From positions 630,001-662,000 of the forward strand of contig NC_004460.2 of assembly GCF_000039765.1 (NCBI RefSeq): a DNA stretch of 32,000 bases. The letters are read 5' to 3'. The notes under the pieces are model-generated. The model made no database searches. It saw nothing but the letters and a program-made list of their open reading frames with translations, and was not told the DNA's origin. This DNA is from Vibrio vulnificus CMCP6 (GTDB lineage Bacteria > Pseudomonadota > Gammaproteobacteria > Enterobacterales > Vibrionaceae). Each line of letters starts with the position of its first letter. The first letter of the stretch is position 1. Shown one piece after another: positions 11,951-30,337 of the stretch. The position numbers and the translations under genes were made by a program.

Positions 11951-13840
11951 ATGCAACAAAAGTGTCACTATTATAATAATCAGGTAGAGAAACGTCAGAT
12001 GAATGATTCAACGCTCCAAGCTTGCATCGATTTAGATGAGCTTATTCATACTCTATCTCTCGACGGTAGCGAGCTGCTCAATCAAGTTACGCTCAAGCTG
12101 CATTCCACTTTAAGCTCGTACTGCACCTGTATCGTAGAGATAGATCTGCACCACAACCATGCCAATACCTTGGCTTATGCAAAAGAGGGAAGCAACGTTA
12201 ACGCTGCGCGTTATAGCTTAGAAAATACGCCATTTGAACGCATCGCTCTCAAGGTGATCGAGCACTGTCATCTGATTCAAGACAACGTCCCTGACAGCTA
12301 TTTCTCACTAGAAGAAGGGCTAGAATTTACCGAAGCGGGCGTGCATGCGTTTGTCGGCATTCCACTGCGCGGCCATAATGGCGATATTTTGGGTATTCTG
12401 GTTTCCACATTTGGATTTAAACCTCACGACCCTCAGTTAATACTCAAATATCACCGCATATACGCCAACATCATTATTCACGGTTTACGAGAAAAGTGGC
12501 TAAGTGATCGCTCTGATCAGTTGGTGAATCAACTCAGTTACGAAGTCTCACACGATAATTTGACCGGATTACTTAACCGCAGTTGCCTTTCGGATACCTT
12601 GGAAACCCTTACCCAGCAATCCGATCGCCCATTTAGCCTCGTTTGCATCGATATCGATAACTTCAAATTAATCAACGACATTCACGGCACCTACATTGGT
12701 GACCAAATCATCAAGTTTACTGCGCATGCCATTCAATCCGCACTGCCCACCCCTGCCTTGGCGTACCGAGTGGCGGGTGATGAGTTTGCTTTTATCACTT
12801 ATTCCGAAACGCCAGAGGAGGTGTGCGAGCACATACTGAATAAGATTGCGTTTGGCTATCAAGACAACGCCAATCACGTTCGATTTGACATCAGCATCGG
12901 CATCGCCAAAGCAAGCCAACGTCTTATTACGAGTGATGAGTTATTTCTCAACGCCAGCCTTGCGATGAAAGAGTGTAAAAAGCACCCTAACAATCGTATT
13001 CGCTGCTATGACACCCATTTAAGCGCGCTATACCATCGAAAAACACAGTTAATCGAAGCCATACGCGAGCAACTGGCGAAGCCTATCGATGAGGTAACAG
13101 AGATTTACGTGGCGATTCAGCCGATCGTCAACGTGCATAAACCACGTTGGGATTATTTTGAAGTGTTGGCGCGTTGGGACAGTGCCGAATATGGCTCAAT
13201 TTCGCCCGTTGAGTTTATTGATGCCGCCGAGCAATCAGGGCTCATTGTTCAGTTAGGAGAGCGGATCATCGAGCTCGCTTGCCGAGCAAAAAACTACTTG
13301 GAAGAATCGTTAGGTTATCGGGTGAAACTTGGCGTCAACTGTTCTGCGTATGAACTGAATGATGAAGAGCGATACCTTAATTACCTCAATAAGATGATGC
13401 AAAAGTATCATCTCGATCCCCGTGATTTCGTGATTGAACTTACAGAAACGGTGTTACTGACTCAAACGGGTAAAGAGCACATGGTGCTGGATGCACTAAG
13501 AGATCGCGGTTTCAAAGTGGCACTCGACGATTTCGGCACGGGTTACTCAAGCTTGAATTACATTCACAGCTACCCCATCGACACGATAAAAATCGACGCC
13601 AGCTTTATACGTAATATGCTTTGTAACGACACCGCTGAGCGCGTGGTGTGGCTTATCACACAACTGGCCTTACAACTTAAGGTGAATTTAGTCGCTGAAG
13701 GGGTTGAAGAAGAGCTGGCGTTGAAAAAATTGGTCGATATGGGATGCGAGCAGATCCAAGGCTATTACTATTCTCGTCCAATGAAACCAAGCCGAATCGT
13801 AGACAAACTGAGTGCCAAGCAGATCAAAAGCGCCTCTTAG
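11951..13840 (+). CDS. Cytoplasmic GAF-GGDEF-EAL protein (degenerate 'AGDEF'; EAL motif reads 'EVL'); likely a c-di-GMP phosphodiesterase
   Basis: 629 aa as tracked. It has a GAF-like N-terminus (…AFVGIPLRGHNGDILGILVS…), a GGDEF domain with 'YRVAGDEFAF', and an EAL domain with EVLARW, ELTE, DDFGTGYSSLNYI, KIDASF, EGVEEE and QGYYYSRP. The true start may be the ATG at 11999 (MNDSTLQ), which has aGGtAGAG ~10 nt upstream. Confidence 0.88.
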   Translation: MQQKCHYYNNQVEKRQMNDSTLQACIDLDELIHTLSLDGSELLNQVTLKLHSTLSSYCTCIVEIDLHHNHANTLAYAKEGSNVNAARYSLENTPFERIALKVIEHCHLIQDNVPDSYFSLEEGLEFTEAGVHAFVGIPLRGHNGDILGILVSTFGFKPHDPQLILKYHRIYANIIIHGLREKWLSDRSDQLVNQLSYEVSHDNLTGLLNRSCLSDTLETLTQQSDRPFSLVCIDIDNFKLINDIHGTYIGDQIIKFTAHAIQSALPTPALAYRVAGDEFAFITYSETPEEVCEHILNKIAFGYQDNANHVRFDISIGIAKASQRLITSDELFLNASLAMKECKKHPNNRIRCYDTHLSALYHRKTQLIEAIREQLAKPIDEVTEIYVAIQPIVNVHKPRWDYFEVLARWDSAEYGSISPVEFIDAAEQSGLIVQLGERIIELACRAKNYLEESLGYRVKLGVNCSAYELNDEERYLNYLNKMMQKYHLDPRDFVIELTETVLLTQTGKEHMVLDALRDRGFKVALDDFGTGYSSLNYIHSYPIDTIKIDASFIRNMLCNDTAERVVWLITQLALQLKVNLVAEGVEEELALKKLVDMGCEQIQGYYYSRPMKPSRIVDKLSAKQIKSAS

Positions 13841-13895
13841 CTTGCCTTATTCAACCGCTGGCGAACTCGCAACAGGGCTATGAAAACAGAGTTGT

Positions 13896-13924
13896 GAAAA
13901 AGGGACGATATTTCGTCCCTTTTC
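13896..13924. terminator. Bidirectional intrinsic terminator between convergent genes
   Basis: gaaaa-agggacga-tatt-tcgtccct-tttt has an 8-bp stem at 13901-13908 and 13913-13920. Confidence 0.85.
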
Positions 13925-13974
13925 TCATGGAGAAACCTTTGTGGATTTCGCCTTGCTAAGTCAGCACTCAGCGA

Positions 13975-14337
13975 TTATTGAAATGCTTCACCCGCTGCCG
14001 CGACAAAGGTCATTTCAACCAAGTAGTCTGGGTCAGCAAGCTCTGCTTTGACACAAGCACGGCTTGGTGCACAGCCTTCAGGAAACCAGTTGTCCCATAC
14101 TTCATTGAGCGCATCAAAGTTGGCAAAATCAGTCACATAAATGGTCACCGAAAGAATACGCGAGCGATCACTGCCGATTTTCGCCAATTGCGCTTCTGCT
14201 TGAGCAAAAATCTGCTCCACTTGGCCTTTCATGTCCGCGTTGGTATCACTGTCAGCCACTTCCACAAAATGCGCAATGCCATTGAAGACGGTAATATCAG
14301 ACCAGCGTTTACATGGGTTAATGCGGTGAATTGTCAT
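13975..14337 (-). CDS. RidA/YjgF/YER057c-family protein (enamine/imine deaminase-like)
   Basis: 120 aa of typical Rid length, with the '…ILSVTIYVTDFANFDALNEVWDNWF…PSRACVKAEL…VEM' pattern. Confidence 0.82.
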   Translation of the reverse strand: MTIHRINPCKRWSDITVFNGIAHFVEVADSDTNADMKGQVEQIFAQAEAQLAKIGSDRSRILSVTIYVTDFANFDALNEVWDNWFPEGCAPSRACVKAELADPDYLVEMTFVAAAGEAFQ

Positions 14338-14363
14338 CGTATTTTCTCTTTATCAGATTGATT

Positions 14364-15404
14364 TTATTTAAAGGGTTCTTGATGCTCGACTAAGCAAACC
14401 GGGCTACCAATTTGGCAGCTGAAGCCCGTTGCGGTTAATCGGCCCGTGTGGCGGTCGCGACGATAGCTGACCACATTATGGCTATGCTGGTTCGCCACCA
14501 GCAACCATTTGCCATTGCGCGACAACACAAAGTCTCGCGGAAAATCTCCAAGAGAATCCACCGCCTCTAACCATTTAGGCTCGCTTTGGCTAACATCAAA
14601 AACCGTGATTTTATTTTGTCGGCGGCAGGATGCATAGAGAAATTGCTCATCGGAAGACAATCGAATGGCAGAAGCCGCAGCGCCATTTTCTTCACCCGGC
14701 AGCAAAGGTTGCTCTGAAACCATCGCCCAACGTTCGTTTGCTCGTTCTAGCGTCAGCAAAGTTTCGGTCAATTCGCACAGCAAATAGGCACGAGTTTCCG
14801 CCTGATTAAAGACTAGGTGACGAGGGCCGGTGCCTGCAGGAAGTTTAAGTGACTGATGCAAAGTAAAGGCTTGCTGCTGATCATTAATTTGATAGAAATG
14901 CACCTGATCGGTACCCAAATCCACCACAGCTAAAAAAGGGCTATGGCGTAGAAACGTCGCTTGGTGCGCGTGTGGTGATGTTTGTCGCTCTCGATTTGGG
15001 CCATCACCTTCCACATAAAGCTCAGCAATGCACTCTGACGGCGCACCTAACACATCGAGCGTATATATGGAGGTGTTGCCTGAACCATAATTTGCGACGG
15101 CACAAAACGTCTGGGTCGGGTCAATATCTAAATGACAAGGGTAGCTACCGTTGATCGCCATTGCGCTACTGTCGACACAACCAAGTTGCATCAACTGTGG
15201 GTTCTCTTCAACCGCCACTTCATTGAAGGTATATAAGCCTCGCGAAGTTTGTGTGAGATAAGACGGATTGCGTAGCGTCGCCAGCTCGTTAAATGGGATC
15301 AACTCACCCGTTTCAGTATTGAGTTCCAGTTGAGCCACGCCGTCACTCATACTGGGTTCATCGGTATAGGTGCCAACGTAAAAATGTAAGATACCTTGTG
15401 TCAT
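14364..15404 (-). CDS. Seven-bladed beta-propeller lactonase (YbhE/Pgl-like family), no signal peptide
   Basis: 346 aa. It has the N-terminal 'FYVGTYTD' and the repeated motifs 'PSYL', 'PCHLDIDP', 'GPRHLVF' and 'FPRDFVLS' characteristic of this lactonase family. Confidence 0.8.
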   Translation of the reverse strand: MTQGILHFYVGTYTDEPSMSDGVAQLELNTETGELIPFNELATLRNPSYLTQTSRGLYTFNEVAVEENPQLMQLGCVDSSAMAINGSYPCHLDIDPTQTFCAVANYGSGNTSIYTLDVLGAPSECIAELYVEGDGPNRERQTSPHAHQATFLRHSPFLAVVDLGTDQVHFYQINDQQQAFTLHQSLKLPAGTGPRHLVFNQAETRAYLLCELTETLLTLERANERWAMVSEQPLLPGEENGAAASAIRLSSDEQFLYASCRRQNKITVFDVSQSEPKWLEAVDSLGDFPRDFVLSRNGKWLLVANQHSHNVVSYRRDRHTGRLTATGFSCQIGSPVCLVEHQEPFK

Positions 15405-15443
15405 TCTTTTTGCGCTTCCTTTGCGTTAAGCCATCTTGTTACC

Positions 15444-15469
15444 TTGCCGCCTGTCGTCACAGGCGGCAA
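15444..15469 (-). other. Intercistronic GC-rich hairpin (GH20-lactonase junction)
   Basis: ttgccgcctg (15444-15453) pairs with caggcggcaa (15460-15469). There is no U-run on the transcribed (minus) strand. Confidence 0.5.
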
Positions 15470-15482
15470 CGGCTTTTCTACA

Positions 15483-17954
15483 CTAAGGTGCAATTTTGTG
15501 AAGTAGCTGCTCGGTTGGTCTTACTATCGCCACAATGGTTTCATCAAAAATGACCGCATTCTTATCCAATATCGCTTGATAAGTCGCTCGCTCAGCAGCT
15601 GAAAGCACTTGTCCCTGTTGCGCTTTTTCCACCAACTCAAGACCCAGCTCTGCTAACGCTATGGTTGCCTCTGCGATCGCCACACTCTCACGTGAGGCCA
15701 CATTGGCAGCAAAAATCCCACGAGATTGGCGCGCCGCACCTTTCACCGCCTGATAATGCTCAGAAAGCTCCTCAAGCGCCTGCTTGCTTTGCGGACTTTG
15801 CGCATTGCCATTTGGCTGATAGCCACGCACCCACGCTTCCATGTCATACACCGCATAGCTTTCTACCACGAGGGCATCGGCGAACCGATTTAAGCGTTCA
15901 TATTGGTTGTACAAATCCCCTTTGTTTGGCGTAGAAATCCATTTCTCCCAGTGCCTCGCATAATATTGTGCAGGCTCCGTGTATTTGGCTAACGTGATGA
16001 GCGGCGCAACATCTGCCCCATTGGCTAAACGCTGAAGCATCATCCGAGCATCCGCATGATGACGCAGGCCAAGAGAAATTTCCGACCAACTATCCAGCGC
16101 GCGCATTCGACGGTACATACTGGCTTCATCAGTGAGCGATTCACTTGACCAAAGTCGTTCGGCAATCGCATAGCTGCGTGGCCATAAGCGCTGTTCTATG
16201 GTCATCGAATCGAGATTTTCACCCCAAATGGTCACTTCACCACCGAGGATCAATGGCTCCTCTTGTTTGGTCAGTTGAGCAGGATAACCGCCATTGGGTT
16301 GCGGAATGCTCGTCACTTCTCTCTCGCTAGAGGCCACCAAATTGCCAGTTGCTGGCCAACGCACATTGCCAATACGCTGATAGCTGCCTTCTTTTAGTTG
16401 ATCACCAGCAAACTGATAATTGAATTCAGTGTAGGACATGAAGTTGTCAAAATGGCCACGGAATAGCACTCCGGGGACGTATTCCAATACATACACTTCT
16501 TCACGCGATTTACCATTGTAATCGGTAAATGCACGCACTTTGCCGTCAGCACCCTCGATGATGGTGAGATTCCCTTTGCGCGGGCCTCCTTTATTGCGAG
16601 GCTTCACCCAATCGTAGGTGACAAATTTTTCCCCTTGATGCAGTTGATCATCGACGGTGATCCCCTTCGGCATCGGGTCATTACGATAATGGTAGCTGGT
16701 GGGTTGAGGCTGATCGAGATAATAACCCGTCGACAAAATGCCTTGATAGCCCTCTTTGGCCGCTCGGCCAATACTGTCATGCCCCTGCCAACTCTGAATC
16801 ACCACCGATTTCGGCAGATCTTTATGCCAAATTTCATCCCAGCCTGTGATTTTCTTGCCGCGCTGGTTCAGCATCTGCTCGACTCGGCTATTCAGGTACG
16901 ATTGCAGCCCTCGTTCGCCGTCCAATTGATGCTGTTTGATAAACGCTTGGATTTTCGGGTTGTCACGCCACTGTTGATAGTTCGGCTCATCCCCGCCGAT
17001 GTGAAAATACTCATCTGGGAAGAGCTCGACCACTTCATCGAATACGCTTGCCAACATGGTGTAGAGTTCTGGATTGGTTGGGTCCATCAAAGGTTCAAAC
17101 ACACCCCAACCACGCTGCTGAGGGTAAGACTGTTCACCAAGGCCAGACATCAATTCCGGATAGGCGTGCGCGACCGCCGAAGCATGGCCAGGCAGCGAGA
17201 TTTCAGGGATCACACGAATACCAAGATTACGCGCGTACTCAACCACTTGGCGAATTTCATCTTTGCTGTAGAAATCACCATCCGCGGTGGCTTGCCATAA
17301 GCGAGGGTAGTTTTCCAGTTGAATACGAATGCCTTGGTCATCCCAGATATGCCAGTGGAAGACGTTCATTTTCGCTGAGGCCATGGCATCCAATTGGCGC
17401 AAAATCACCGGCAGTTCGATGTAATGACGCGCAGTATCGTACGACACCCCACGCCATTTAAAACGCGGCGCATCAGAGATAGCAACGGCGGGAACGAAGT
17501 AGCCATTGGCATCCGTCGAAACCAGTTGCAGTAAGGTTTCTAAGCCATGAAACGCGCCATAAGGCTCAGTGGATGAAAGCAAAATCTTGCCATTTGCAAC
17601 CTTCAATTGGTATGACTCATCGCTGTCGATATTTTGCACCGCACTGCTTGGGGCACGTTGAATATCTATCACCAACGTTGCTTCTTGTTCGGATTTTGCC
17701 TGCCAATTCAGCATCGGCAAGCCAGTTTGTCGATAGAGCCGCTCCATGGTGCGCTTAACGTTAAACGCCACGCGCGGTGAGTCGTAACCTTTGATATAAA
17801 TACTGAACGCTTTATCCAGCGTCACCTTGCCTTCGCTTAACTCAACGTTTTGCGGGTAAGGCATTAAAACCAAATCGGTATTGGGAGCCATTGCCATCGT
17901 TATCGGTGCCATCAGTACGCCTGAAATCAGTAGAGCCAGTGTAGCTTTGTTCAT
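15483..17954 (-). CDS. Secreted or periplasmic GH20 beta-N-acetylhexosaminidase (chitobiase-like) with an extra C-terminal region
   Basis: 823 aa. It has a signal peptide MNKATLALLISGVLMAPITMAMA, the GH20 catalytic-domain motifs 'FHWHIWDDQG' and 'FHIGGDE' (D-E pair), and a 'W…ERLW' C-terminal GH20 motif. Confidence 0.92.
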   Translation of the reverse strand: MNKATLALLISGVLMAPITMAMAPNTDLVLMPYPQNVELSEGKVTLDKAFSIYIKGYDSPRVAFNVKRTMERLYRQTGLPMLNWQAKSEQEATLVIDIQRAPSSAVQNIDSDESYQLKVANGKILLSSTEPYGAFHGLETLLQLVSTDANGYFVPAVAISDAPRFKWRGVSYDTARHYIELPVILRQLDAMASAKMNVFHWHIWDDQGIRIQLENYPRLWQATADGDFYSKDEIRQVVEYARNLGIRVIPEISLPGHASAVAHAYPELMSGLGEQSYPQQRGWGVFEPLMDPTNPELYTMLASVFDEVVELFPDEYFHIGGDEPNYQQWRDNPKIQAFIKQHQLDGERGLQSYLNSRVEQMLNQRGKKITGWDEIWHKDLPKSVVIQSWQGHDSIGRAAKEGYQGILSTGYYLDQPQPTSYHYRNDPMPKGITVDDQLHQGEKFVTYDWVKPRNKGGPRKGNLTIIEGADGKVRAFTDYNGKSREEVYVLEYVPGVLFRGHFDNFMSYTEFNYQFAGDQLKEGSYQRIGNVRWPATGNLVASSEREVTSIPQPNGGYPAQLTKQEEPLILGGEVTIWGENLDSMTIEQRLWPRSYAIAERLWSSESLTDEASMYRRMRALDSWSEISLGLRHHADARMMLQRLANGADVAPLITLAKYTEPAQYYARHWEKWISTPNKGDLYNQYERLNRFADALVVESYAVYDMEAWVRGYQPNGNAQSPQSKQALEELSEHYQAVKGAARQSRGIFAANVASRESVAIAEATIALAELGLELVEKAQQGQVLSAAERATYQAILDKNAVIFDETIVAIVRPTEQLLHKIAP

Positions 17955-17976
17955 CTTGAGGTTCCTGTGCTAACAC

Positions 17977-18010
17977 GATGAGTTTCAGAGCAAGATCACT
18001 GAAACTCATC
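17977..18010 (-). other. Intercistronic 12-bp perfect hairpin (symporter-GH20 junction)
   Basis: gatgagtttcag (17977-17988) pairs with ctgaaactcatc (17999-18010), with a 10-nt loop and no U-run on the minus strand. Confidence 0.5.
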
Positions 18011-18033
18011 GAACAGAGATTAGAAGAGGGAGA

Positions 18034-19551
18034 TTACAGCTCGCGCGCCGCTTGACGATTTGCCAGCGATTCGTCGCGATCCAGCTCGCCTTTGTCGGAG
18101 AGTTCCATTTCCATCAAAGCGCGTTCATCGTCTAAGATGGCGCGTGCCATTTCGGCAGAGACTTGATTTGCTGGCGTCAGCAGGCTCACGACGACACCGG
18201 CAGTTAATGCCACCAAACACGATGGGATCACCGGGTTGCCCCAAAACGTGGTCAGGCTCGGACTCATCATCACCGTCACGGAAGCAGCAGACGCACCCGC
18301 CAGTGTTGCTAAGGCTCCTTGCCAGTTATAACGAGACCAAAAACGCCCCAACATACCGCAGACAAACATGCCAGACATGACTGTAGAAATCATTTTGGTG
18401 ATGTAGCTGATGATGTCGTTTGAGGTGAGAGCAAACAGCAAGGCGAAACCAATCACCACCACTAACGCCAGACGCGAGTAGTTGAGCATCGACTCTTTGT
18501 TTGGCACACGGCCTGTGAACATCACATACACATCACGCAGCAGGATGGACACGCCCGCAATCGCATCAGAACTGGCACTCGACATGGTGGCCGAAAGGCC
18601 AGCAATAAGCACAATCATCCCCACACCGACAGGCAACACCGTGGCAGCCACGTAAGGGAACGCATAGTTTGAGTTGGTCAACTCTGGGTTAATCGCATGC
18701 GCTGCCATACCGATAATGGCAGGGATAATTGAGAAGAACAGGTACAACACGCCCGAGCCAACAAACGAACGACGGATGGTTGAAACATCTTTGCCCGAGT
18801 AGATACGCTGACGGAACGACGGCGTTGCTAACACGCCCACACCAATCACGACAGACAATGAAATCGCCGGGATCAACCCGAGTTTGTCGATGGCCAAAAA
18901 GCTGACTGCCGCTGGGTCCATCGCGCTATAGAGATTATCTAGGCCCCCAATGTGCTGCACAGACAAGACCGCCATGAGAATGAAGCCAACAAACAAGATC
19001 ACGGCTTGAATGGTATCGGTCCATACCACGGCGGTATAACCGCCAATCACCACGTAAATAGTAAAGGCCGCCGCAATCACAATTTTCGCGGTGCTTAGTT
19101 CAATGTCGGCAATCCACGCAAGGTACATGCCACCGCCAAGAATGTGCGCGCCAAGCCAACCAATCGATGCAATGAAAATCAACAAGCCGACCACATTTTT
19201 GACGATGCGGTTCGCACCGACATAGTAGGCCAACTCCTCACTCATGGTCATAAAGTTGAGTTTACGAACAGGGGCAAACCACAAAGCGAGAAGAAGAATG
19301 CCCACGGCACCACCAATGCCATAGAGCGCTCCCGCCCAACCATTGGCATAACCAAAGCCTACCGCTCCCATACTGGAACCCGTTCCCACCATGGTGGCAA
19401 CTGTGGTGCCTAAGACGAGAAATAACGGTAAACCTCGACCACCTAATAAAAAATCTTCTCCTGATTTTTGATTACGTGAAACAAACCAGCCGAGCCAAAT
19501 AAGGAAAAGCACATATATTCCAAATCCGGTTAAAAAAAGTGTGCTATTCAT
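18034..19551 (-). CDS. Sodium:solute symporter (SSF family)
   Basis: 505 aa with ~13 TM helices and SSF-type N-terminal 'FLLGGRGLP' and 'GSSMGAVGFGY' segments. Confidence 0.88.
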   Translation of the reverse strand: MNSTLFLTGFGIYVLFLIWLGWFVSRNQKSGEDFLLGGRGLPLFLVLGTTVATMVGTGSSMGAVGFGYANGWAGALYGIGGAVGILLLALWFAPVRKLNFMTMSEELAYYVGANRIVKNVVGLLIFIASIGWLGAHILGGGMYLAWIADIELSTAKIVIAAAFTIYVVIGGYTAVVWTDTIQAVILFVGFILMAVLSVQHIGGLDNLYSAMDPAAVSFLAIDKLGLIPAISLSVVIGVGVLATPSFRQRIYSGKDVSTIRRSFVGSGVLYLFFSIIPAIIGMAAHAINPELTNSNYAFPYVAATVLPVGVGMIVLIAGLSATMSSASSDAIAGVSILLRDVYVMFTGRVPNKESMLNYSRLALVVVIGFALLFALTSNDIISYITKMISTVMSGMFVCGMLGRFWSRYNWQGALATLAGASAASVTVMMSPSLTTFWGNPVIPSCLVALTAGVVVSLLTPANQVSAEMARAILDDERALMEMELSDKGELDRDESLANRQAAREL

Positions 19552-19647
19552 TGAACACCTCTCAGGTAATTTAAGTCCATCTTTCAGATAAAATATCCCT
19601 GTCCTTCTACTTTGGCAGGCATGATTATTTTTATTTCAGGGAGTGAA

Positions 19648-19689
19648 GGTGCCGAATAAGAATAACAAGGAGAGTTCAAATTCGGCACC
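19648..19689 (-). other. 10-bp stem hairpin in the 189-bp RidA-symporter spacer
   Basis: ggtgccgaat (19648-19657) pairs with attcggcacc (19680-19689), with a 22-nt loop. Confidence 0.4.
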
Positions 19690-19740
19690 GTGTGAGTTTG
19701 TCTTTGTGACGATTAACTCAAATAAGTGCGTTGATATTTA

Positions 19741-20133
19741 TTAGCGACGGTCGGCTCGATAACACGTGACGTCGACTTCCACTTTGACATCCACCACAAG
19801 GTCACACACCATGCAAATACGCGCAGGTGGATGCTCGCCAAAAAACTCTTTAAACACTTTATTGAACGACTGGAAATAGCGTGCATCGGTCAACACAACC
19901 TTAACGTGTACTACATCTTCTAGCGTATAGCCCGCCTCGCTCATGATGTCGACACAGTTTTGAATTGCGAGGCGAGACTGATCAACAATGCCACCTTCAA
20001 CCACTTCACCATCAATCATCGGTGTTTGGCCAGAGACGTAAAGGAAACCACCCGCTTCGGTTGCTCGTGCAAAGGGTAAATGCTGACCACCTGTGCCCAC
20101 GCCGCCTTCTACGCCATATCGTTTAATTGACAT
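19741..20133 (-). CDS. RidA-family reactive-intermediate (enamine/imine) deaminase
   Basis: 130 aa with 'FLYVSGQTP…', '…VKVVLTDARYFQSFNKVFKEFF…PARICMVC' and a C-terminal 'VEVDVTC', the canonical RidA layout. Confidence 0.88.
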   Translation of the reverse strand: MSIKRYGVEGGVGTGGQHLPFARATEAGGFLYVSGQTPMIDGEVVEGGIVDQSRLAIQNCVDIMSEAGYTLEDVVHVKVVLTDARYFQSFNKVFKEFFGEHPPARICMVCDLVVDVKVEVDVTCYRADRR

Positions 20134-20208
20134 TATTTTTCTCCATTACTTTCTTACTTAATTTCATTAATTTAATATTTATCAAATAACTTTATTTGAA
20201 TTAAATCG

Positions 20209-21642
20209 TTATTTATTTCGATAAATAAAAACACCGTTTCTGTGTTTTGAAACCTGACCATTAAAATAAGCCAGTATTCCATTCACGAATACCCGTTCAA
20301 TACCTTGCGCTAACGAAATGGGATTTTCAAAAGTTGCGGTATCTTTCACTGTTCTCGGATTAAATAAAACCAAGTCAGCAAATGCACCTTGTTTTATAAC
20401 CCCTCGTTCACTGAGGTTATATCGTTTAGCAGACATTCCCGTCATTTTGTGAATCGCTTCTTGCAGGGAAAAGAGTTTTTCTTCTCGGCAATAATGCCCG
20501 AGCACTTTCGGGAAAGTGCCCCACAAGCGCGGGTGTGGATGAGGATCGTTCGGCAATCCATCCGAACCCACCATGGTTAAGCGGTATTTCAACACTCGCT
20601 TAACATCTTGTTCGTCCATGCAGTGATACACCGCTCCAGCAGGTTGTAGCGCTTTGGCTGCTTCCATGAGAGGTAAGCCCATCTCCTTAGCGATCTGCTT
20701 AAGCATCTTGCCGGCAAACTGTGGCTGGCTTTTCGACCAAGTAATAAAAATGTCGATCTCTTCTGTCACTTGAGTCAGATCTAAAGTGGAAGAGCTGGCC
20801 GAATAAGGGTAACAATCGCAAGAGACATCTTGATGTTGAGCGGCTTTTTCCATCAGATCCACCACTTCAACAGTGCGTCCCCAATTGCCCGCGCCCGCGC
20901 ATTTAAGATGGGAGATCACCACAGGTACCTTAGCAAACTGGCCCGTTTCAAAGGCTTCCGCCATCGCACTGAGTATCTCTTCAAATTCGGTACGCATGTG
21001 GGTGGTATAAATGCCCTCATACTCGCCGAGCACTTGTGCTAAGCGCATCACTTCATCGGCGGTCGCCTGCTTAGCACTGGCATAAGCCAAACCTGAACTT
21101 AGCCCCAGCGCCCCCTGCTCCATCGCTAAAGCGAGCGCTTGTCGCATCTGCTCGATTTCTTCATCGGATGCGGCGCGTAACAAATCATCCATAACATTGT
21201 TACGCAGTGTCGTATGGCCAACCAACGCCGCCACATTCACGGCAGGTTGCGCGCGTGTTACCGCTTCAGCGTAATGAGCAAAAGTCGGGTATTTAAAATC
21301 GGCTTGCTCGCCAAGCAAGTTCATCGGGTCAGGCGGATCACCCGCTAAAATCGTCGGGCTGGCACTAATACCACAATTACCCACAATCACGGTTGTCACC
21401 CCTTGGCTGACTTTAGCCAAACACTCTGGATAACGAATCACATTGGTATCGTCATGAGTATGAACATCGATAAATCCCGGTGCTAGCGCCAAGCCCTGGC
21501 CATCAATCACACAAGCCGCAGACGCATATTGACTATCACCAATTTGAGCAATTCGCTGCCCTTGAATGGCGACATCAGACACAAATGGCATCCCACCGGT
21601 GCCATCAAAAATTTCCACATTTCGAATTATGGTATCGAACAC
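20209..21642 (-). CDS. N-acyl-D-amino-acid deacylase (D-aminoacylase) family amidohydrolase
   Basis: 477 aa. It has the N-terminal beta-sandwich 'IIRNVEIFDGTG…DVAIQGQRIAQIG', the metal motif 'GFIDVHTHDD', and 'MVGSDGLP…HPRLWGTFPKVLG', typical of D-aminoacylases. Confidence 0.85.
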   Translation of the reverse strand: MFDTIIRNVEIFDGTGGMPFVSDVAIQGQRIAQIGDSQYASAACVIDGQGLALAPGFIDVHTHDDTNVIRYPECLAKVSQGVTTVIVGNCGISASPTILAGDPPDPMNLLGEQADFKYPTFAHYAEAVTRAQPAVNVAALVGHTTLRNNVMDDLLRAASDEEIEQMRQALALAMEQGALGLSSGLAYASAKQATADEVMRLAQVLGEYEGIYTTHMRTEFEEILSAMAEAFETGQFAKVPVVISHLKCAGAGNWGRTVEVVDLMEKAAQHQDVSCDCYPYSASSSTLDLTQVTEEIDIFITWSKSQPQFAGKMLKQIAKEMGLPLMEAAKALQPAGAVYHCMDEQDVKRVLKYRLTMVGSDGLPNDPHPHPRLWGTFPKVLGHYCREEKLFSLQEAIHKMTGMSAKRYNLSERGVIKQGAFADLVLFNPRTVKDTATFENPISLAQGIERVFVNGILAYFNGQVSKHRNGVFIYRNK

Positions 21643-21740
21643 TCTACGTCTCTCTACTGCTCAACTCTTTAACCTGATGTCATAGTAAATCTTGCTAAAA
21701 ATTAATCAGTGACAAAACACACAAATAAACACGAAAAGTT

Positions 21741-21755
21741 TGATACTTTCTATCA
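21741..21755. promoter_or_regulatory. 15-bp palindrome in the divergent promoter region (candidate RpiR operator)
   Basis: TGATA-CTTTC-TATCA is the only clear dyad I saw in the 182-bp spacer between the D-aminoacylase operon and the deaminase/rpiR genes. Confidence 0.4.
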
Positions 21756-21824
21756 CAAGATCTATTTTAGAAACAAACAAACTCAAAATATCAATCACTT
21801 AAATCATGTTAGAAGTAGATAACC

Positions 21825-23090
21825 ATGAAAAAACCTTATGAAAATCATGATAGAAACTATCATAACTTTGTTGTTAAACGCCCCGCTGTTGGTGAAAAAA
21901 GCCAAGCAATTCAACCTCAAGCATGCAATTTATCGTTGGACGAAGTGAGCCTGCCGAGTGCGGTGATTCACGCGTCTGCACTCAACAATAACCTTAAGTG
22001 GATGCAACAGTTTGCCAATCACCACCACGTGAAACTGGCCCCACACGGCAAAACCTCCATGACGCCCGATTTCTTCCGCCAACAACTTGAACATGGCGCG
22101 TGGGGCATCACCGTTGCCACCGCGGCGCAGGCGGAAGTGGCTGCCATGGCTGGGGCGAAAAACATCATCATCGCGAATCAACTGGTGGGCAAAGCCAACA
22201 TGGCCATCATCAGTCAACTCATCGAAGATCCTGAGATTCACCTGTACTGCTGCGTGGATTCATCACGGAACATTCGCGCCCTTTCGCACTTTTTTGCCCA
22301 ACGCCAGCAAACACTTCATCTTTTCATTGAATTGGGAGTGAATGGCGGCCGTTGTGGTTGTCGAAGCGAAGCACAAGTGCTTTCACTCGCTAACGAAATC
22401 CACTCACTGCCTCATTTGGCGTTGGCAGGCATCGAGGTGTACGAAGGGGTGATTCATGGTGAAAATGCCGAGGAAGAGATTTGCCATTTCTTGCAGAATG
22501 CGATCTCTTTGGCTCGCAAGCTCAAAAGCACTCAATTGATCGCATCACAGCCAATCATCACTGGTGCGGGCTCAGCTTGGTATGACGTTGTGGCGGAGCA
22601 ATTTAGCGGCCTTACCGATCTCACCCCCGTCATTCGCCCTGGCTGCTACGCCATCCATGACACAGGAATTTACCAAACCGCACAGCAAAACGTGATGCAA
22701 AGAGCCCAACAAAATCAGGGCGTCGCGTGCGATCTTGGTGGGGATTTGCTCTCTGCGCTTGAGCTATGGGCACATGTTATTTCTCGCCCAGAACCAACGC
22801 GTCTTGTGGTGGGCATGGGTAAACGCGATGTGGCATTTGATGCTGGCCTGCCCACGTTAGAACGCGCGTTTCGCGACGGTCAGCCGTTGCCAATAGCTGC
22901 TGGCGTGACATCAATCGCGATCATGGATCAACACACGTTTGTCGAGATCCCGGCAGAGTGCGAACTCGATGTCGGCGATATTCTGGTTTTCTCCACCTCT
23001 CACCCTTGCCTCACCATCGACAAATGGCGCGCGTTGGCCATTCGCGATGAACACTATCAAGTGAGCCATTGGGTAGAAACCCGCTTCTGA
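21825..23090 (+). CDS. PLP-dependent D-serine-dehydratase-like / D-threonine-aldolase-like enzyme (alanine racemase N-terminal fold; DSD1 family 'amino acid deaminase')
   Basis: 421 aa. It has a PLP-lysine context 'LAPHGKTSM' and a C-terminal 'FSTSHPCLT' (H-x-C metal motif of the DSD1 family). The SD before 21825 is weak, so the exact start is uncertain. Confidence 0.8.
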   Translation: MKKPYENHDRNYHNFVVKRPAVGEKSQAIQPQACNLSLDEVSLPSAVIHASALNNNLKWMQQFANHHHVKLAPHGKTSMTPDFFRQQLEHGAWGITVATAAQAEVAAMAGAKNIIIANQLVGKANMAIISQLIEDPEIHLYCCVDSSRNIRALSHFFAQRQQTLHLFIELGVNGGRCGCRSEAQVLSLANEIHSLPHLALAGIEVYEGVIHGENAEEEICHFLQNAISLARKLKSTQLIASQPIITGAGSAWYDVVAEQFSGLTDLTPVIRPGCYAIHDTGIYQTAQQNVMQRAQQNQGVACDLGGDLLSALELWAHVISRPEPTRLVVGMGKRDVAFDAGLPTLERAFRDGQPLPIAAGVTSIAIMDQHTFVEIPAECELDVGDILVFSTSHPCLTIDKWRALAIRDEHYQVSHWVETRF

Positions 23091-23186
23091 TGAATTTGTG
23101 CGATGTGAAAGCAGCAACTTAGAGCAAATTACGCTATTCTTGCGACCGCAGTTTTACTGCGGTCATTGGCAACGTAGGACAATCCC

Positions 23187-24050
23187 TTGAGTTTAGAAGT
23201 CGATATTATTTCTCAAATTACCGAACGTTTTAGCGCATTACGCGAGGCAGAAAAGAAAGTCGCCAAATTGGTGATGGATGACATTGAAACCGCCGCCAAT
23301 GCGAGTATTACTGAACTGGCCCAGAGCGCCGATGTCAGCGAGGCCACCATTACGCGCTTTGCCAAAGCGATTGGTTGTAAGAATGTGCGCGAAATGAAGA
23401 TCAAACTGGCGCAATCACTCACCGTGGGCCAACGATTTATTCTCGAACCGCCTGATCAAAGTGGCTATCAAGTGATTTACGAATCCATCAAACAATCACT
23501 CGATATCAACCGTGCTTTGATTAATGAACAAGATATTGATCAAGCCGTTGAGTGGCTCTATGGTGCAAGACAAATCATCAGTGTCGGCATGGGTGGTGGT
23601 TCCACCATTGCGTCTCAGGAACTGCAACATCGCCTGTTTCGTTTGGGCTTTGCCATTGTTGCCTACCACGATGGTTTGATGACACGCATGGTCGCCGCTA
23701 CCGCTGATGCTAATGACGTCATGGTGTTGATTTCAGCGACAGGCTACACCCCAGTGATCGTTGAGACGGCGCAACTGGCTCGCGATTACGGCCTGAAAAT
23801 CATTGCCATCACCCCAAAAGGCACTCCATTGGCTGAACAAGCAAACGTGGTTTTGCCGATAGAGCATCACGAAACGGATTTTATCTACAAGCCTTCCGCC
23901 TCACGTTACGCCATGCTGGCCCTTGTCGATGTACTTTCTATGGCGTTAGCGGTGAAAAACAAACGCCGCTCACGTGACAAACTGCGCCGCTTAAAAGTGG
24001 CATTAGACTCACATCGTGGCGGCGGGGATAGGCAGCCTTTGGGTGATTAG
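23187..24050 (+). CDS. RpiR-family regulator (HTH_6 plus SIS sugar-phosphate/sugar-acid sensing domain)
   Basis: 287 aa with a TTG start per the track. It has 'LREAEKKVAKLVMDD…ASITELAQSADVSEATITRFAKAIG' (the RpiR HTH) and an SIS 'ISVGMGGGSTIASQ' loop. Confidence 0.85.
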   Translation: MSLEVDIISQITERFSALREAEKKVAKLVMDDIETAANASITELAQSADVSEATITRFAKAIGCKNVREMKIKLAQSLTVGQRFILEPPDQSGYQVIYESIKQSLDINRALINEQDIDQAVEWLYGARQIISVGMGGGSTIASQELQHRLFRLGFAIVAYHDGLMTRMVAATADANDVMVLISATGYTPVIVETAQLARDYGLKIIAITPKGTPLAEQANVVLPIEHHETDFIYKPSASRYAMLALVDVLSMALAVKNKRRSRDKLRRLKVALDSHRGGGDRQPLGD

Positions 24051-24068
24051 GCACAGCCAGTAAATCAG

Positions 24069-24100
24069 ATAGAGCGACATTCGGTGTCGCTCTATTTATA
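24069..24100 (+). terminator. Intrinsic terminator after rpiR
   Basis: atagagcgaca (24069-24079) pairs with tgtcgctctat (24085-24095), followed by a T-rich tail. Confidence 0.7.
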
Positions 24101-24187
24101 TTCCTCCTGCGAGCTTAATCCCGTTTCTCACCTTAAAAATCACATTAATTCAAACCCTTACTATACTCATGAGGGCAAATGCATTTA

Positions 24188-24205
24188 ATTCATCACTTGA
24201 TGAAT
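24188..24205. promoter_or_regulatory. 18-bp palindrome upstream of the HlyD/ABC operon (candidate operator)
   Basis: ATTCATCA-CT-TGATGAAT has perfect 8-bp arms and sits ~90 bp upstream of the 24296 start. Confidence 0.45.
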
Positions 24206-24295
24206 ATTTGCAGAATTAAGTTGCTAGAGCAGCAACCACACCCAGCGTTACACTGTTGATTGATTAACCACTACCGTTACTGTTAGGACGATCGC

Positions 24296-25246
24296 ATGCG
24301 AAACCGACTGATCTGCGTATGGGCTCTACTTGCCCTCACCGCTTGTACGACCGAATCCACGCCTCAAGCACTTGGTACACTTGAGCGTGACCGCGTCACC
24401 TTTACCACCACCGCCAATGAGATCATTCGAGAGCTTCCCGTCAAGGAAGGTCAGATGGTTTCGCAAGGCGATGTGCTGGTTAAGCTCGATAGCAAAAATC
24501 AACAAGCCGTCTTAGCCCGCGCCCTCGCTGAACAAAGCAAAGCGCAAGCCTATCTACTCAAACTCACTAACGGTGAACGACCAGAGGACATTGCTTCAGC
24601 ACAAGCTCGCGTTGCCCGCGCCGAAGCGCAGTTAATCGAAGCGCAGAAAACCTTCAAACGTAAATCGGAACTGGTGGCGAAAAAGCTCATCAGTCAGTCA
24701 GAAAAAGACACCGCTCTCGCACAGCGAGATTCGGCAAGAGCGGAACTGGATTCCGCCAATGAGGAGTTCAGCAAGCTGACCGCTGGCTCACGTCCAGAAG
24801 ACATCGAACAGGCCAAGGCACAACTGGCCGCCACTCAAGCCGATGTGGTCTTACAGCAGCAGAAACTCGACGAACTCACCATCGTCGCGACCCGAGATGG
24901 CATTCTCGACAATCTGCCCTATAACCTAGGGGAGCGCGTGCCTGTCAGTGGCATTGTGGCGGTCATTCAAGCCAATCGCATTCCTTATGCGCGCGTCTAT
25001 GTGCCTGCCACTTATCGAGTGAACTTCGTGCCCGGCAAACAAGTGACGGTCCATGTCGATGGCGTGAGCGATCCTCAGCAAGGCACGGTGCGTTGGGTGG
25101 CGAACGAAGCCTCTTTCACACCCTATTACGCCCTCACCGAGGAAGAGCGTTCACGCTTGATGTATTTAGCGGAAGTGGATCTTACTGAAGCTGCGCGCGC
25201 CCTCCCTTCCGGCGTGCCAGCACAGGTTGATCTCAACGGAGAGTAA
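24296..25246 (+). CDS. HlyD-family membrane-fusion (periplasmic adaptor) protein, lipoprotein-type signal
   Basis: 316 aa. It has a lipobox-like 'LLALTACTT', a long coiled-coil (…AQARVARAEAQLIEAQK…AKAQLAATQADVVLQQQKL…) and a beta-barrel C-terminus. Confidence 0.88.
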   Translation: MRNRLICVWALLALTACTTESTPQALGTLERDRVTFTTTANEIIRELPVKEGQMVSQGDVLVKLDSKNQQAVLARALAEQSKAQAYLLKLTNGERPEDIASAQARVARAEAQLIEAQKTFKRKSELVAKKLISQSEKDTALAQRDSARAELDSANEEFSKLTAGSRPEDIEQAKAQLAATQADVVLQQQKLDELTIVATRDGILDNLPYNLGERVPVSGIVAVIQANRIPYARVYVPATYRVNFVPGKQVTVHVDGVSDPQQGTVRWVANEASFTPYYALTEEERSRLMYLAEVDLTEAARALPSGVPAQVDLNGE

Positions 25247-25249
25247 GCC

Positions 25250-26176
25250 ATGGTTGAATACGCAATTCAGGCGCAAAACGTGGTGAAAAAATTTGGCGAT
25301 TTCACTGCCATCGACAACATCACGCTGAACGTGCCGAAAGGCAGCATCTACGGCTTTCTTGGCCCAAATGGTTGTGGAAAATCGACCACCATCCGTGTTC
25401 TCACCGGGCTACTCAGCCCGAGCGAAGGCAACGTTGATGTGCTCGGTTTGGAGATTCCCAAGGAATCAGAAAAACTCCGCTTGAAGATCGGCTACATGAC
25501 GCAAAAGTTCTCTCTTTATGATGACCTCACTGTGGAAGAAAACTTGCAGTTCATTGGCCAGATTTTTGGTATGGACAAGAAAACCCTAACTCAGCGGATC
25601 AATGAGCAGCTCGCCACTTATGGCTTGGATCAACGCCGCAAGCAACGGGTTTCAGGCATGAGTGGCGGCCAAAAGCAGCGCCTTTCTTTGGCCGCAGCGA
25701 CCATGCATAAACCCGAGCTGCTGTTTCTTGACGAGCCCACCTCGGCGGTTGACCCCGAAAACCGCCGCGAGTTCTGGGAGCAGTTGTTCGATCTTTGTGA
25801 CCAAGGCACCACCATCTTGGTGACCACACACTATATGGATGAAGCGGAACGCTGCCACCGACTTGCCATTATGGAAGCAGGTTTGATTCGCGCAGATGGA
25901 GCCCCTGAAGAGCTCATGGCGCAAATGGGCGTTAACATTGTTGAGGTCAAAGCGGACAACTTACGTTCGTTAAAAGAGCAGTTATTGCCTTTGGCAGAAG
26001 TGCGTTCTGCAGCGCAATTAGGCATTCGCTTACGCGTCTTGATCGATCAACGCGTGGCAGACCCAATAGCGTGGCTAAGAGCCACGTTTCCTCGTTTACA
26101 AAACGCGGAAATGAATCTTGCCAGACCAAGTTTGGAAGATGTGTTTGTGTCCGTAACAGGAGAAGGCCGCCAATGA
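25250..26176 (+). CDS. ABC transporter ATP-binding protein (ABC-2/DrrA-like)
   Basis: 308 aa with Walker A GPNGCGKST, signature MSGGQKQRLS, Walker B LLFLDEPTSAVD and H-loop TTHYMDE. It starts 4 nt after the HlyD stop. Confidence 0.93.
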   Translation: MVEYAIQAQNVVKKFGDFTAIDNITLNVPKGSIYGFLGPNGCGKSTTIRVLTGLLSPSEGNVDVLGLEIPKESEKLRLKIGYMTQKFSLYDDLTVEENLQFIGQIFGMDKKTLTQRINEQLATYGLDQRRKQRVSGMSGGQKQRLSLAAATMHKPELLFLDEPTSAVDPENRREFWEQLFDLCDQGTTILVTTHYMDEAERCHRLAIMEAGLIRADGAPEELMAQMGVNIVEVKADNLRSLKEQLLPLAEVRSAAQLGIRLRVLIDQRVADPIAWLRATFPRLQNAEMNLARPSLEDVFVSVTGEGRQ

Positions 26177-27270
26177 ATGCGCTCTATCGAATGAAAGCGA
26201 TTATGGTCAAAGAATTTCGCCAACTCTCGCGCGATCGTATTACCTTTGGAATGGTGGTGATGATTCCCCTGATCCAACTGCTATTGTTTGGCTATGCGAT
26301 TAATACCGACATTCGCGACATTCCTGTCGCGGTGGTGGATCAAAGCGAAAGTACTGCAGGGCGTATTCTTACCGAGTCGGTCAAAGTCACGCAAGTGGTC
26401 AGTGTGACTCAACGCTACGCCACCGCAGAAGAAGCCGAGCAAGCGATTCAAGATGGCATCGTACGTGCGGCGTTGATTTTGCCGAATGATTTAACGCAAC
26501 GCATGGCGCAAGGCCGACCGTTAGGTCAATGGATTGTCGATGGTTCAGATACCATGATCAGCGCGGCGATTCTTGGCTTACAAACGATGCCGCTGACAGA
26601 TTTTGATTTTCAGATCCGCCCGAAACTAACACAAACCTTTGAAGTGGCGCTCTACTACAACCCAAGCCGTCGCTCAGCAGTAAACATTGTTCCCGGGCTA
26701 CTTGGGGTCATTCTCACCATGACGATGATTTTGTTCACCAGCGCCGCCATTGTGCGTGAGCGAGAACGCGGAAACTTGGAACTGCTGATCACAACGCCGG
26801 TGCGTTCGTTTGAACTGATGGTGGCAAAGATCGTCCCTTACATATTTGTCGGTTTGATTCAGGTGTTCATCATCTTAGGGCTTGGACACGTTATTTTTGG
26901 CGTTCCTATCAATGGTTCCGTTGCGCAAATATTGTTGGGTACCTTGTTGTTTATTGCCGCGAGTCTTACCTTGGGGCTGGTGATTTCCACCATCGCCAAC
27001 ACACAGTTGCAAGCCATGCAAATGACGGTTTTCATCTTGCTGCCTTCCATCCTACTTTCGGGTTTCATGTTCCCCTACGAGGGCATGCCCGTGGCGGCCC
27101 AATGGATTGCAGAAGTGCTCCCCGCCACTCACTTCATGCGGATGATTCGCGGCATTGTCTTGCGAGGCGCTGATTTGTTCGACCTGTGGCGTGACACTTT
27201 ATGGATGATTGGCTTTACCCTGCTTGGGCTGATCATTGCCTCGACACGCTTCAAGAAATCGTTGGATTAA
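26173..27270 (+). CDS. ABC-2 type transporter permease
   Basis: I place the start at the ATG at 26173 (MNALYRMKAIMVKEFRQLSRDR…), which overlaps the ABC stop as ATGA. The tracked 26071 start would overlap the ATPase gene by 100 nt with a non-membrane-like extension. Six TM helices lie in the C-terminal half. Confidence 0.88.
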   Translation: MNALYRMKAIMVKEFRQLSRDRITFGMVVMIPLIQLLLFGYAINTDIRDIPVAVVDQSESTAGRILTESVKVTQVVSVTQRYATAEEAEQAIQDGIVRAALILPNDLTQRMAQGRPLGQWIVDGSDTMISAAILGLQTMPLTDFDFQIRPKLTQTFEVALYYNPSRRSAVNIVPGLLGVILTMTMILFTSAAIVRERERGNLELLITTPVRSFELMVAKIVPYIFVGLIQVFIILGLGHVIFGVPINGSVAQILLGTLLFIAASLTLGLVISTIANTQLQAMQMTVFILLPSILLSGFMFPYEGMPVAAQWIAEVLPATHFMRMIRGIVLRGADLFDLWRDTLWMIGFTLLGLIIASTRFKKSLD

Positions 27271-30214: not shown

Positions 30215-30337
30215 AGCCACACATGGAGGATGCAGGCACACGCGACCAAAGTGACTGCATCGCACCTTAGCCAGCATGCCAAGCGTAAGCAGGGAGTGCT
30301 AGGCGTACCAAGCCTCTCTGAAACGCCTTGTATGCCA

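Follow-up and report, generated by a model that had tools for sequence, protein, structure and literature searches.

The gene cluster at positions 13975-24050 of a 32-kb stretch of Vibrio vulnificus CMCP6 DNA (NC_004460.2; this whole stretch is called the window, and all coordinates are positions within it) is in our estimate, with a probability of about 0.87, the V. vulnificus copy of the published ong (oxidised N-acetylglucosamine) cluster, which would serve the use of C1-oxidised chitin fragments. The core of the locus is not new, because both the cluster and V. vulnificus itself are already in Jiang et al. (2022, Nat Commun, PMC9537276). In that work, eight ong genes of Pseudoalteromonas prydzensis ACAM 620 were defined by RNA-seq, knock-outs and enzymology: ongOT-1, a TonB-dependent receptor; ongA, a GH20 enzyme that splits the dimer of N-acetylglucosamine (GlcNAc) and N-acetyl-D-glucosaminic acid (GlcNAc1A); ongIT, a solute:sodium symporter-type importer; ongB, a deacetylase; ongC, a pyridoxal phosphate (PLP) deaminase that turns D-glucosaminate (GlcN1A) into 2-keto-3-deoxygluconate (KDG) and NH3; ongD, a RidA protein; kdgK; and ongR, an RpiR repressor (PMC9537276). 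The window holds six of these genes, followed by a lactonase and a second Rid-like protein, which are accessory genes at the 3' end of the operon and are absent from the descriptions in the ong papers. The eight genes are:

13975-14337, minus strand: RidA2, a Rid protein (Pfam Ribonuc_L-PSP, 9.5e-21)
14364-15404, minus strand: lactonase (Pfam PF10282, 5e-92)
15483-17954, minus strand: ongA (Pfam GH20 catalytic and N-terminal domains, 1.5e-89)
18034-19551, minus strand: ongIT (Pfam sodium:solute symporter, SSF, 3e-46)
19741-20133, minus strand: ongD, or RidA1 (Pfam Ribonuc_L-PSP, Rid, 7.8e-23)
20209-21642, minus strand: ongB (Pfam Amidohydro_3, 7.7e-41)
21825-23090, plus strand: ongC (Pfam Ala_racemase_N and D-ser_dehydrat)
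23187-24050, plus strand: ongR (Pfam HTH_6, RpiR type, and SIS)

An initial annotation, made from the letters of the sequence, had proposed this eight-gene layout, and all open reading frames lie on the strands and at the positions it gave, with Pfam backing each domain call. The ongB product is 98-100% identical to V. vulnificus proteins, and the gene order is not an accident of assembly, since it recurs unchanged over 21 kb in six independent assemblies of the species. A signal-peptide-like hydrophobic N-terminus (MNKATLALLISGVLMAPITMAMA) is found in the GH20 protein alone among the soluble proteins, in agreement with the proposal that the GH20 is exported and the lactonase cytoplasmic. No structured RNAs came out of an Rfam scan of 13000-25000. 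The annotation had also named N-acetyl-D-glucosaminate as the substrate, with GH20 trimming, a symporter, deacetylation, PLP-dependent deamination and RpiR control, all of which match the ong pathway, and the marine Pseudoalteromonas precedent that it mentioned is the P. prydzensis cluster itself (PMC9537276).

The gene content of the window agrees exactly with the published listing for the species. Supplementary Data 2 and 3 of Jiang et al. list V. vulnificus strains with lpmo (for the lytic polysaccharide monooxygenase, LPMO), ongC, ongR, ongB, ongD, ongIT and ongA, and give "-" for ongOT-1 and kdgK; kdgK is "-" in several Pseudoalteromonas too, and ongOT-1 is described as the one non-conserved gene (PMC9537276). 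Here, ongB is adjoined by genes for a fold-type III PLP enzyme (OngC), a Rid protein (OngD) and an RpiR regulator (OngR), and at the level of domains the cluster includes a symporter (OngIT) and a GH20 protein with a signal peptide (OngA). The TonB-dependent receptor ongOT-1 was not found in the window, nor is any PfkB kinase, kdgK included, or 2-keto-3-deoxy-6-phosphogluconate (KDPG) aldolase encoded anywhere in its 32 kb, as the initial annotation had noted.

The enzyme encoded at 20209-21642 is, judging from its residues, an OngB-type GlcNAc1A deacetylase and not a generic D-aminoacylase, because every metal, catalytic and GlcNAc1A-contact residue defined by crystallography and mutagenesis is kept. 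Its alignment with PpOngB, from the OngB structure paper (Wang et al., 2025, JBC, PMC12017989), has no gaps, an offset of +7 and 56.6% identity, comparable to the 57% identity between PpOngB and PfOngB, which is GlcNAc1A-specific by experiment (PMC12017989). All 17 key residues are the same in both proteins: H61, H63, C90, H215, H245 and D361 (catalytic D368 in PpOngB), together with the GlcNAc1A contacts L109, Y187, E219, K247, Y278, S283, S284, S285, Q291, L363 and R372, whose PpOngB counterparts are L116, Y194, E226, K254, Y285, S290-S292, Q298, L370 and R379. A Thr in place of the Ser equivalent to S285 lowers OngB activity to 1.3% (PMC12017989). Among PDB sequences, the product scores 634 bits against KleDacyl of Klebsiella pneumoniae (9G5M), 579 bits against PpOngB (9KB1), 450 bits against a true D-aminoacylase (1M7J) and 363 bits against an N-acyl-D-glutamate deacylase (3GIP). 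The window enzyme does share with D-aminoacylases the amidohydrolase fold, the metal ligands and a logic of deacetylation followed by PLP-dependent elimination and a Rid step, but it differs from them in its OngB-type pocket (S283-S285, Q291, E219) and in scoring 130-180 bits higher against OngB-type proteins. With 450 bits against the 579-634 bits of the OngB type, and with the polar OngB residues in place, it does not fit the class of deacylases that act on N-acyl-D-amino acids (EC 3.5.1.81). The reinterpretation of this "D-aminoacylase" as a GlcNAc1A deacetylase, for which a homology search had been suggested, is thus borne out by that search.

The closest solved homologue deserves some attention. 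KleDacyl shares 60% identity with the window OngB and has the OngB-type Ser-Ser-Ser and Gln motif. It was published in 2025 as a D-acylase (PDB 9G5M) that hydrolyses Ac-D-Met, Ac-D-Phe and Ac-D,L-Trp; this activity on N-acetyl-D-amino acids is weak, with very low efficiency, and the paper mentions neither OngB nor GlcNAc1A (PMC12149444). KleDacyl is probably a GlcNAc1A deacetylase itself. The OngB and KleDacyl literatures are apparently unconnected.

The remaining core proteins tell a consistent story, which was followed across the 80 loci (L007-L086) recovered by an OngB-alignment scan with one genome per species. The gene ongC adjoins ongB in nearly all of these genomes. Its product has 3gwq, named "D-serine deaminase", as top PDB match (374 bits), carries an HGKT motif at residue 74 and an SHPC motif at residue 392, and by analogy with P. 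prydzensis would be a fold-type III PLP D-glucosaminate deaminase converting GlcN1A into KDG and NH3; OngC also deaminates D-Ser and D-Thr (PMC9537276). Directly after ongB comes ongD in about 70 of the 80 genomes, and ongR is syntenic in almost all of the 80 loci, its product being, by the same analogy, a putative MurR/RpiR-family repressor. Rid enamine/imine deaminases need an Arg equivalent to R105 of Salmonella enterica RidA. This Arg is present in both OngD and RidA2, within a P-x-R-x-C motif, and both proteins match PF01042, as members of the Rid (YjgF/YER057c/UK114) family do. The nearest solved relatives of OngD are archetypal RidA-like proteins, and it is probably the enamine/imine deaminase for the OngC product; in P. 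prydzensis OngD is essential, its role being left unknown by the authors (PMC9537276). OngIT has syntenic counterparts of 88-92% identity in other Vibrio ong clusters and would be the inner-membrane Na+/solute symporter that imports GlcNAc1A. OngA has HIGGDE as its catalytic motif, at residue 318, and syntenic counterparts of 66-78% identity in Vibrio and of 36-37% in Cellvibrionaceae ong clusters; its presumed role, splitting GlcNAc-GlcNAc1A as a periplasmic GH20 hexosaminidase, is taken from the demonstrated function of P. prydzensis OngA (PMC9537276).

Put together, these assignments would give the following route. An AA10 LPMO encoded elsewhere would cut chitin into oligomers ending in GlcNAc1A or its lactone, OngA would hydrolyse GlcNAc-GlcNAc1A in the periplasm, and OngIT would take up the released GlcNAc1A with Na+. 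OngB would then deacetylate GlcNAc1A to D-glucosaminate, from which OngC would eliminate water and ammonia to yield KDG, with OngD (RidA1), and possibly RidA2 too, hydrolysing the enamine/imine that OngC forms. KdgK and then Eda, both encoded outside the window, would phosphorylate and cleave KDG. OngR would hold the divergent ongC-ongR and ongB-ongD promoters off until substrate arrives, probably through two TGATA-N5-TATCA dyads described below. The steps from OngA to OngC, the phosphorylation by KdgK and the repressor role are experimental in P. prydzensis and would carry over by orthology, while aldolase cleavage after KdgK is a hypothesis of the same paper (PMC9537276).

We turn to the two genes that the ong papers do not describe. 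The lactonase (14364-15404) is a cytoplasmic 7-bladed beta-propeller with no signal peptide. It scores 155.6 against a cut-off of 500 for the 6-phosphogluconolactonase model NF050136 of NCBIfam and 99.7 against 370 for NF008258, so that by these profiles it belongs solely to the broad PF10282 family and not to the 6-phosphogluconolactonase equivalogs. The top PDB matches of RidA2 (13975-14337) are the Rid2-type proteins PA5083 and PSPTO_0102. RidA2 appears to be Rid2-like and to form a two-gene module with the lactonase; it stands 3' of the lactonase in ong-linked loci and also in two ong-free ones (L094 and L095). Lactonase orthologues with 48% identity or more are the genes immediately 3' of ongA in one V. 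cholerae strain, V. harveyi, V. coralliilyticus, V. cidicii, Vibrio spp. RE88, TBV020 and M260121, and Photobacterium GB-56, and likewise in 9 of the 14 informative loci from a metagenome collection.

A strict linkage between lactonase and ong was nevertheless rejected on two grounds: homologues with no more than 45% identity (V. splendidus, Enterovibrio, Endozoicomonas) lie in unrelated housekeeping contexts, and within the clade of at least 48% identity, 5 of the 14 informative metagenome loci and 3 isolate genomes are without ong neighbours. In V. ordalii (L094, 10001-11428) and in a metagenome locus (L095) the lactonase-RidA2 pair has no ong gene within 10 kb. By eye, the pair in both loci is just 3' of two tRNA-like genes. 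In V. parahaemolyticus (L092; also L097, L100, L107 and L114) a lactonase orthologue of 57-58% identity adjoins the same HlyD/ABC-2 genes as in V. vulnificus, a chemoreceptor gene sits in the position of ong and the locus holds no ong remnants; it looks like ong was lost there and the lactonase retained. P. sanctipauli has a lactonase alone, with its ong cluster at another site. These solo lactonases fall within the ong-linked clade of a neighbour-joining tree. Two further loci catch the cluster incomplete: in Vibrio sp. M260121 (L009, 13985-16165) kdgK is shortened from 314 to 225 aa, neither kdgA nor ongA is there and the lactonase-RidA2 pair comes directly next, and in V. cidicii (L093, 3186-6062) the ongB, ongC and HlyD matches are each split in two frames and ongIT is missing, with ongA, lactonase and RidA2 intact. 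The V. cidicii case is either a decaying cluster or a set of assembly frameshifts. Between species whose OngB proteins are about 80% identical, the lactonases show 48-58% identity. Read from this distribution, the pair is a small module for which docking to ong is the usual state but not a requirement.

As for what the pair does, the substrate of the lactonase is proposed to be GlcNAc-1,5-lactone or another aldonolactone. A role on GlcNAc-lactone is chemically sensible because lactones inhibit many glycosidases and lactonases relieve this in oxidative cellulose systems; the lactone/acid equilibrium of GlcNAc1A is stressed in the OngB paper (PMC12017989). Judged by their linkage, lactonase and RidA2 would most likely speed two otherwise spontaneous steps, the opening of the lactone and the hydrolysis of the imine. 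No lactonase appears in Jiang et al. 2022 (text and nine supplements, PMC9537276), and our literature search found no paper tying a lactonase to GlcNAc1A. The initial annotation had included lactone opening as a pathway step and had considered the arrangement of GH20, lactonase, two RidA proteins and RpiR as potentially novel. Linkage to ongA speaks for the lactonase step, although it is not in the published pathway and the linkage is not obligatory; of the arrangement, GH20, RpiR and one RidA belong to the known cluster, and the lactonase and the second Rid go beyond the ong papers.

Several points weigh against our reading of the locus as an ong cluster with these functions. Function in V. 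vulnificus is assigned by orthology throughout, and the absence of kdgK and eda from the window means that the pathway cannot end with local genes. The window enzyme may have a slight D-acylase side activity, because KleDacyl weakly hydrolyses N-acetyl-D-amino acids. The lactonase-RidA2 pair may lie outside the pathway, because it persists in genomes and loci without ong genes, and there is no evident need for a lactonase in the cytoplasm, given that at alkaline pH the lactone opens of its own accord (PMC12017989). Taken at face value, automatic annotations (D-aminoacylase, D-serine deaminase) would even make the locus one for D-amino-acid salvage, with an N-acetyl-D-amino acid deacylase, a D-Ser/D-Thr dehydratase and RidA, and with the chitobiase and symporter as unrelated neighbours; the action of OngC on D-Ser and D-Thr (PMC9537276) and of KleDacyl, at 60% identity, on three acetylated D-amino acids (PMC12149444) go in the same direction. 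We consider this very unlikely because the pocket is OngB-specific, with its polar Ser-Ser-Ser, Gln and Glu sugar-binding set, because sister Vibrio clusters hold kdgK and a KDPG-aldolase gene, and because three characterised OngBs (PpOngB, PaOngB and PfOngB) have no activity on ten N-acetyl-D-amino acids (PMC12017989). The bit scores given above and the GH20 gene within the operon point away from salvage as well, and the efficiency of KleDacyl as a D-acylase is very low, GlcNAc1A not being among its assayed substrates (PMC12149444). Another source of substrate is also conceivable, namely monomeric GlcNAc-lactone, GlcNAc1A or D-glucosaminate made from GlcNAc or glucosamine by the oxidases or dehydrogenases of the bacterium or its host, instead of LPMO oligomers. 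Such monomers would explain a lactonase without signal peptide, a GFO/IDH/MocA oxidoreductase is encoded 3 kb away (27351-28292), and in Burkholderia, Achromobacter, Ralstonia and Enterobacteriaceae, where the ongRCBD core is widespread, the 10-kb flanks showed no GH20; the core therefore does not need a GH20 next to it to process oligomers. Yet the secreted GH20 within the V. vulnificus operon points to oligomers, V. vulnificus has an lpmo gene, OngA is required for growth of P. prydzensis on GlcNAc-GlcNAc1A (PMC9537276), and the oxidoreductase is not conserved beside ong in other species, which together make monomers improbable as the main substrate.

For the lactonase and RidA2, the choice is less clear. 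They could be a self-contained module, for example a general aldonolactonase and an imine deaminase, that merely neighbours ong, and we give this a sizeable chance, somewhat short of even. The pair without ong genes in V. ordalii and in the metagenome locus, the intact lactonase alone in V. parahaemolyticus and P. sanctipauli, the nesting of solo copies in the ong-linked clade, the survival of the pair through partial deletion or decay of ong in M260121 and V. cidicii, and the low conservation of the lactonase relative to OngB all fit independence, as does the fact that the P. prydzensis pathway runs without a lactonase (PMC9537276). Against it, the pair comes directly 3' of ongA, in the same orientation and with short spacers, and the sole canonical terminator is the one after RidA2; at least eight species from two genera keep this position, as do 9 of the 14 informative metagenome loci, and the spontaneous steps of the pathway are exactly two in number and match the two activities. 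The opposite and more specific proposal, that the lactonase is a GlcNAc-1,5-lactone hydrolase and RidA2 a quencher of the 2-imino/enamine product of OngC, both dedicated to oxidative chitin use in Vibrionaceae, seems to us rather doubtful, because the module persists without ong and the lactonase is cytoplasmic. If this dedicated role were true, the lactonase would speed the entry of LPMO products to OngB and remove a lactone of the glycosidase-inhibiting kind, and such a detoxifying role would help any chitin-degrading Vibrio, so that the module would outlast the loss of ong.

Leaving these alternatives aside and returning to the ong reading, the regulatory signals of the locus offer candidates for OngR control and for the boundaries of transcription units. 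The features are:

21741-21755, ongB/ongC divergent promoter: dyad 1, TGATACTTTCTATCA, overlapping a -35-like TTGATA
21848-21862, inside the first 13 codons of annotated ongC: dyad 2, TGATAGAAACTATCA
13895-13927, minus strand: intrinsic terminator 3' of RidA2, made up of a hairpin (-17.3 kcal/mol, z = -5.0) and a U5 tract
15441-15473, minus strand: GC-rich hairpin between ongA and lactonase, 11 bp, -25.7 kcal/mol (z = -6.8)
19648-19689, minus strand: hairpin in the 190-bp ongD-ongIT spacer, -18.9 kcal/mol (z = -7.1)

The first dyad had been pointed out by the initial annotation; it is real, and a second copy was found. Both are perfect matches to TGATA-N5-TATCA, 107 bp apart, and in an alignment of eight Vibrio species both boxes are conserved blocks, found in the same intergenic region of the seven other species. 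The columns of dyad 1 are invariant or nearly so, dyad 2 is at the matching place in V. coralliilyticus, V. harveyi, TBV020, M260121, RE88 and V. cidicii, both dyads recur in V. cidicii, and V. penaeicida has another copy upstream of ongB. The case for the dyads rests on this conservation across species, because the pattern search alone is weak: with one mismatch allowed it finds 2 matches where 0.62 are expected, a count reached in 14 of 100 shuffles. We regard dyads 1 and 2 as candidate OngR operators; Jiang et al. 2022 mention no operator, binding site or electrophoretic mobility shift assay for OngR (PMC9537276). The true start of ongC may be further downstream than annotated.

The hairpins and the terminator fit two predicted minus-strand units, ongB-ongD and ongIT-ongA-lactonase-ridA2, with the hairpin at 19648-19689 probably marking the boundary between them. 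The hairpin at 15441-15473 has no U-tract on the coding strand; a T-run follows it on the opposite strand, which has no gene there in need of a terminator. The hairpin may serve to stabilise or process the RNA, or may terminate transcription in part. The two-unit arrangement is comparable to that of P. prydzensis, in which ongCRBD and ongIT-kdgK-ongA are separate operons and OngR represses ongCRBD (PMC9537276).

Neighbouring genes were considered as further parts of the system. The GFO/IDH/MocA oxidoreductase (27351-28292) and an HlyD/ABC-2 transporter (24296-27270) were rejected as such, since neither is conserved beside ong beyond a few neighbourhoods; the oxidoreductase/HlyD-ABC-2 surroundings are limited to V. 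vulnificus, V. cidicii, M260121 and V. parahaemolyticus. Elsewhere in the window, two GGDEF-EAL proteins of cyclic di-GMP turnover are encoded within 7 kb (5131-6906 and 11951-13840), and the gene for the second runs convergently towards the 3' end of the ong operon. A 162-aa open reading frame with no Pfam match (30338-30826) lies in a low-GC stretch (30001-31000, GC 0.37) and is present in V. vulnificus assemblies L002-L004 and absent from L001, L005 and L006, as in a strain-variable islet.

This case shows that the logic of a pathway can be reconstructed from raw sequence without tools. The core adds nothing to the 2022 description, where V. vulnificus was already listed, and what goes beyond it is a set of modest leads. 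One is the conserved lactonase and Rid2 module on many Vibrio ong operons, which, if the lactonase acts on GlcNAc-lactone, would fill the one step that the published pathway treats as spontaneous. Another is the pair of conserved TGATA-N5-TATCA dyads, a concrete candidate for the OngR operator. The third is the missing kdgK: V. vulnificus is a human pathogen and has an LPMO of the GbpA type, and it must draw on kdgK and eda from outside the cluster.

Compared with the P. prydzensis cluster, that of V. vulnificus has the same OngA, OngIT, OngB, OngC, OngD and OngR, with equal active-site residues in OngB, but is without ongOT-1 and kdgK, has ongC-ongR divergent from ongB-ongD instead of a single ongCRBD operon, and adds the lactonase and second Rid after ongA. 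With the clusters of V. harveyi, V. coralliilyticus and non-O1 V. cholerae it has in common the order ongR-ongC / ongB-ongD-ongIT ... ongA-lactonase(-RidA2), at identities of 76-94% except for OngC (61-64%) and the lactonase (48-58%). In these sister clusters, ongIT and ongA are separated by kdgK (PfkB) and a gene for KDPG aldolase, which ties the cluster to KDG metabolism, whereas V. vulnificus has just a 79-bp spacer there; its relative V. cidicii has no more than about 1 kb between ongD and ongA, and no ongIT.

Looking beyond Vibrio, carriers of the complete pathway (ong cluster and lpmo) were reported to be all Gammaproteobacteria save one Achromobacter (PMC9537276). The range of the core looks broader than this 2022 statement. 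The ongR/ongC/ongB/ongD set is present in about 70 of the 80 species genomes, from Vibrionaceae to Burkholderia, Achromobacter and Enterobacteriaceae, and is common among Betaproteobacteria of soil (Burkholderia, Paraburkholderia, Ralstonia, Achromobacter, Bordetella) and found in some metagenome-assembled genomes of Acidobacteria too. No GH20 or symporter homologues were found within the 10-kb flanks of these betaproteobacterial and Acidobacteria cores; in Achromobacter and Bordetella, ABC ATPase-like matches adjoin the core instead.

Two other known systems are comparable in part. The dga operon of Salmonella for D-glucosaminate combines uptake by the phosphotransferase system with the ammonia-lyase DgaE and the aldolase DgaF, and has KDG(-6-P) as intermediate, as in ong. 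It differs from ong in its phosphorylative uptake and unrelated lyase, and includes no deacetylase, GH20 or Rid protein. For the lactonase, the counterpart is a fungal aldonolactonase that is reportedly related to the CMLE / 6-phosphogluconolactonase propeller family. According to the account given of it in PMC3268779, this extracellular enzyme (Beeson et al., 2011) opens the aldonolactone in oxidative cellulose breakdown and so relieves glycosidase inhibition. On that account, each is a lactonase accompanying an oxidative polysaccharide pathway, but the fungal one is a secreted protein with glucono- and cellobiono-lactone as substrates, whereas the Vibrio protein is cytoplasmic and its substrate putative.

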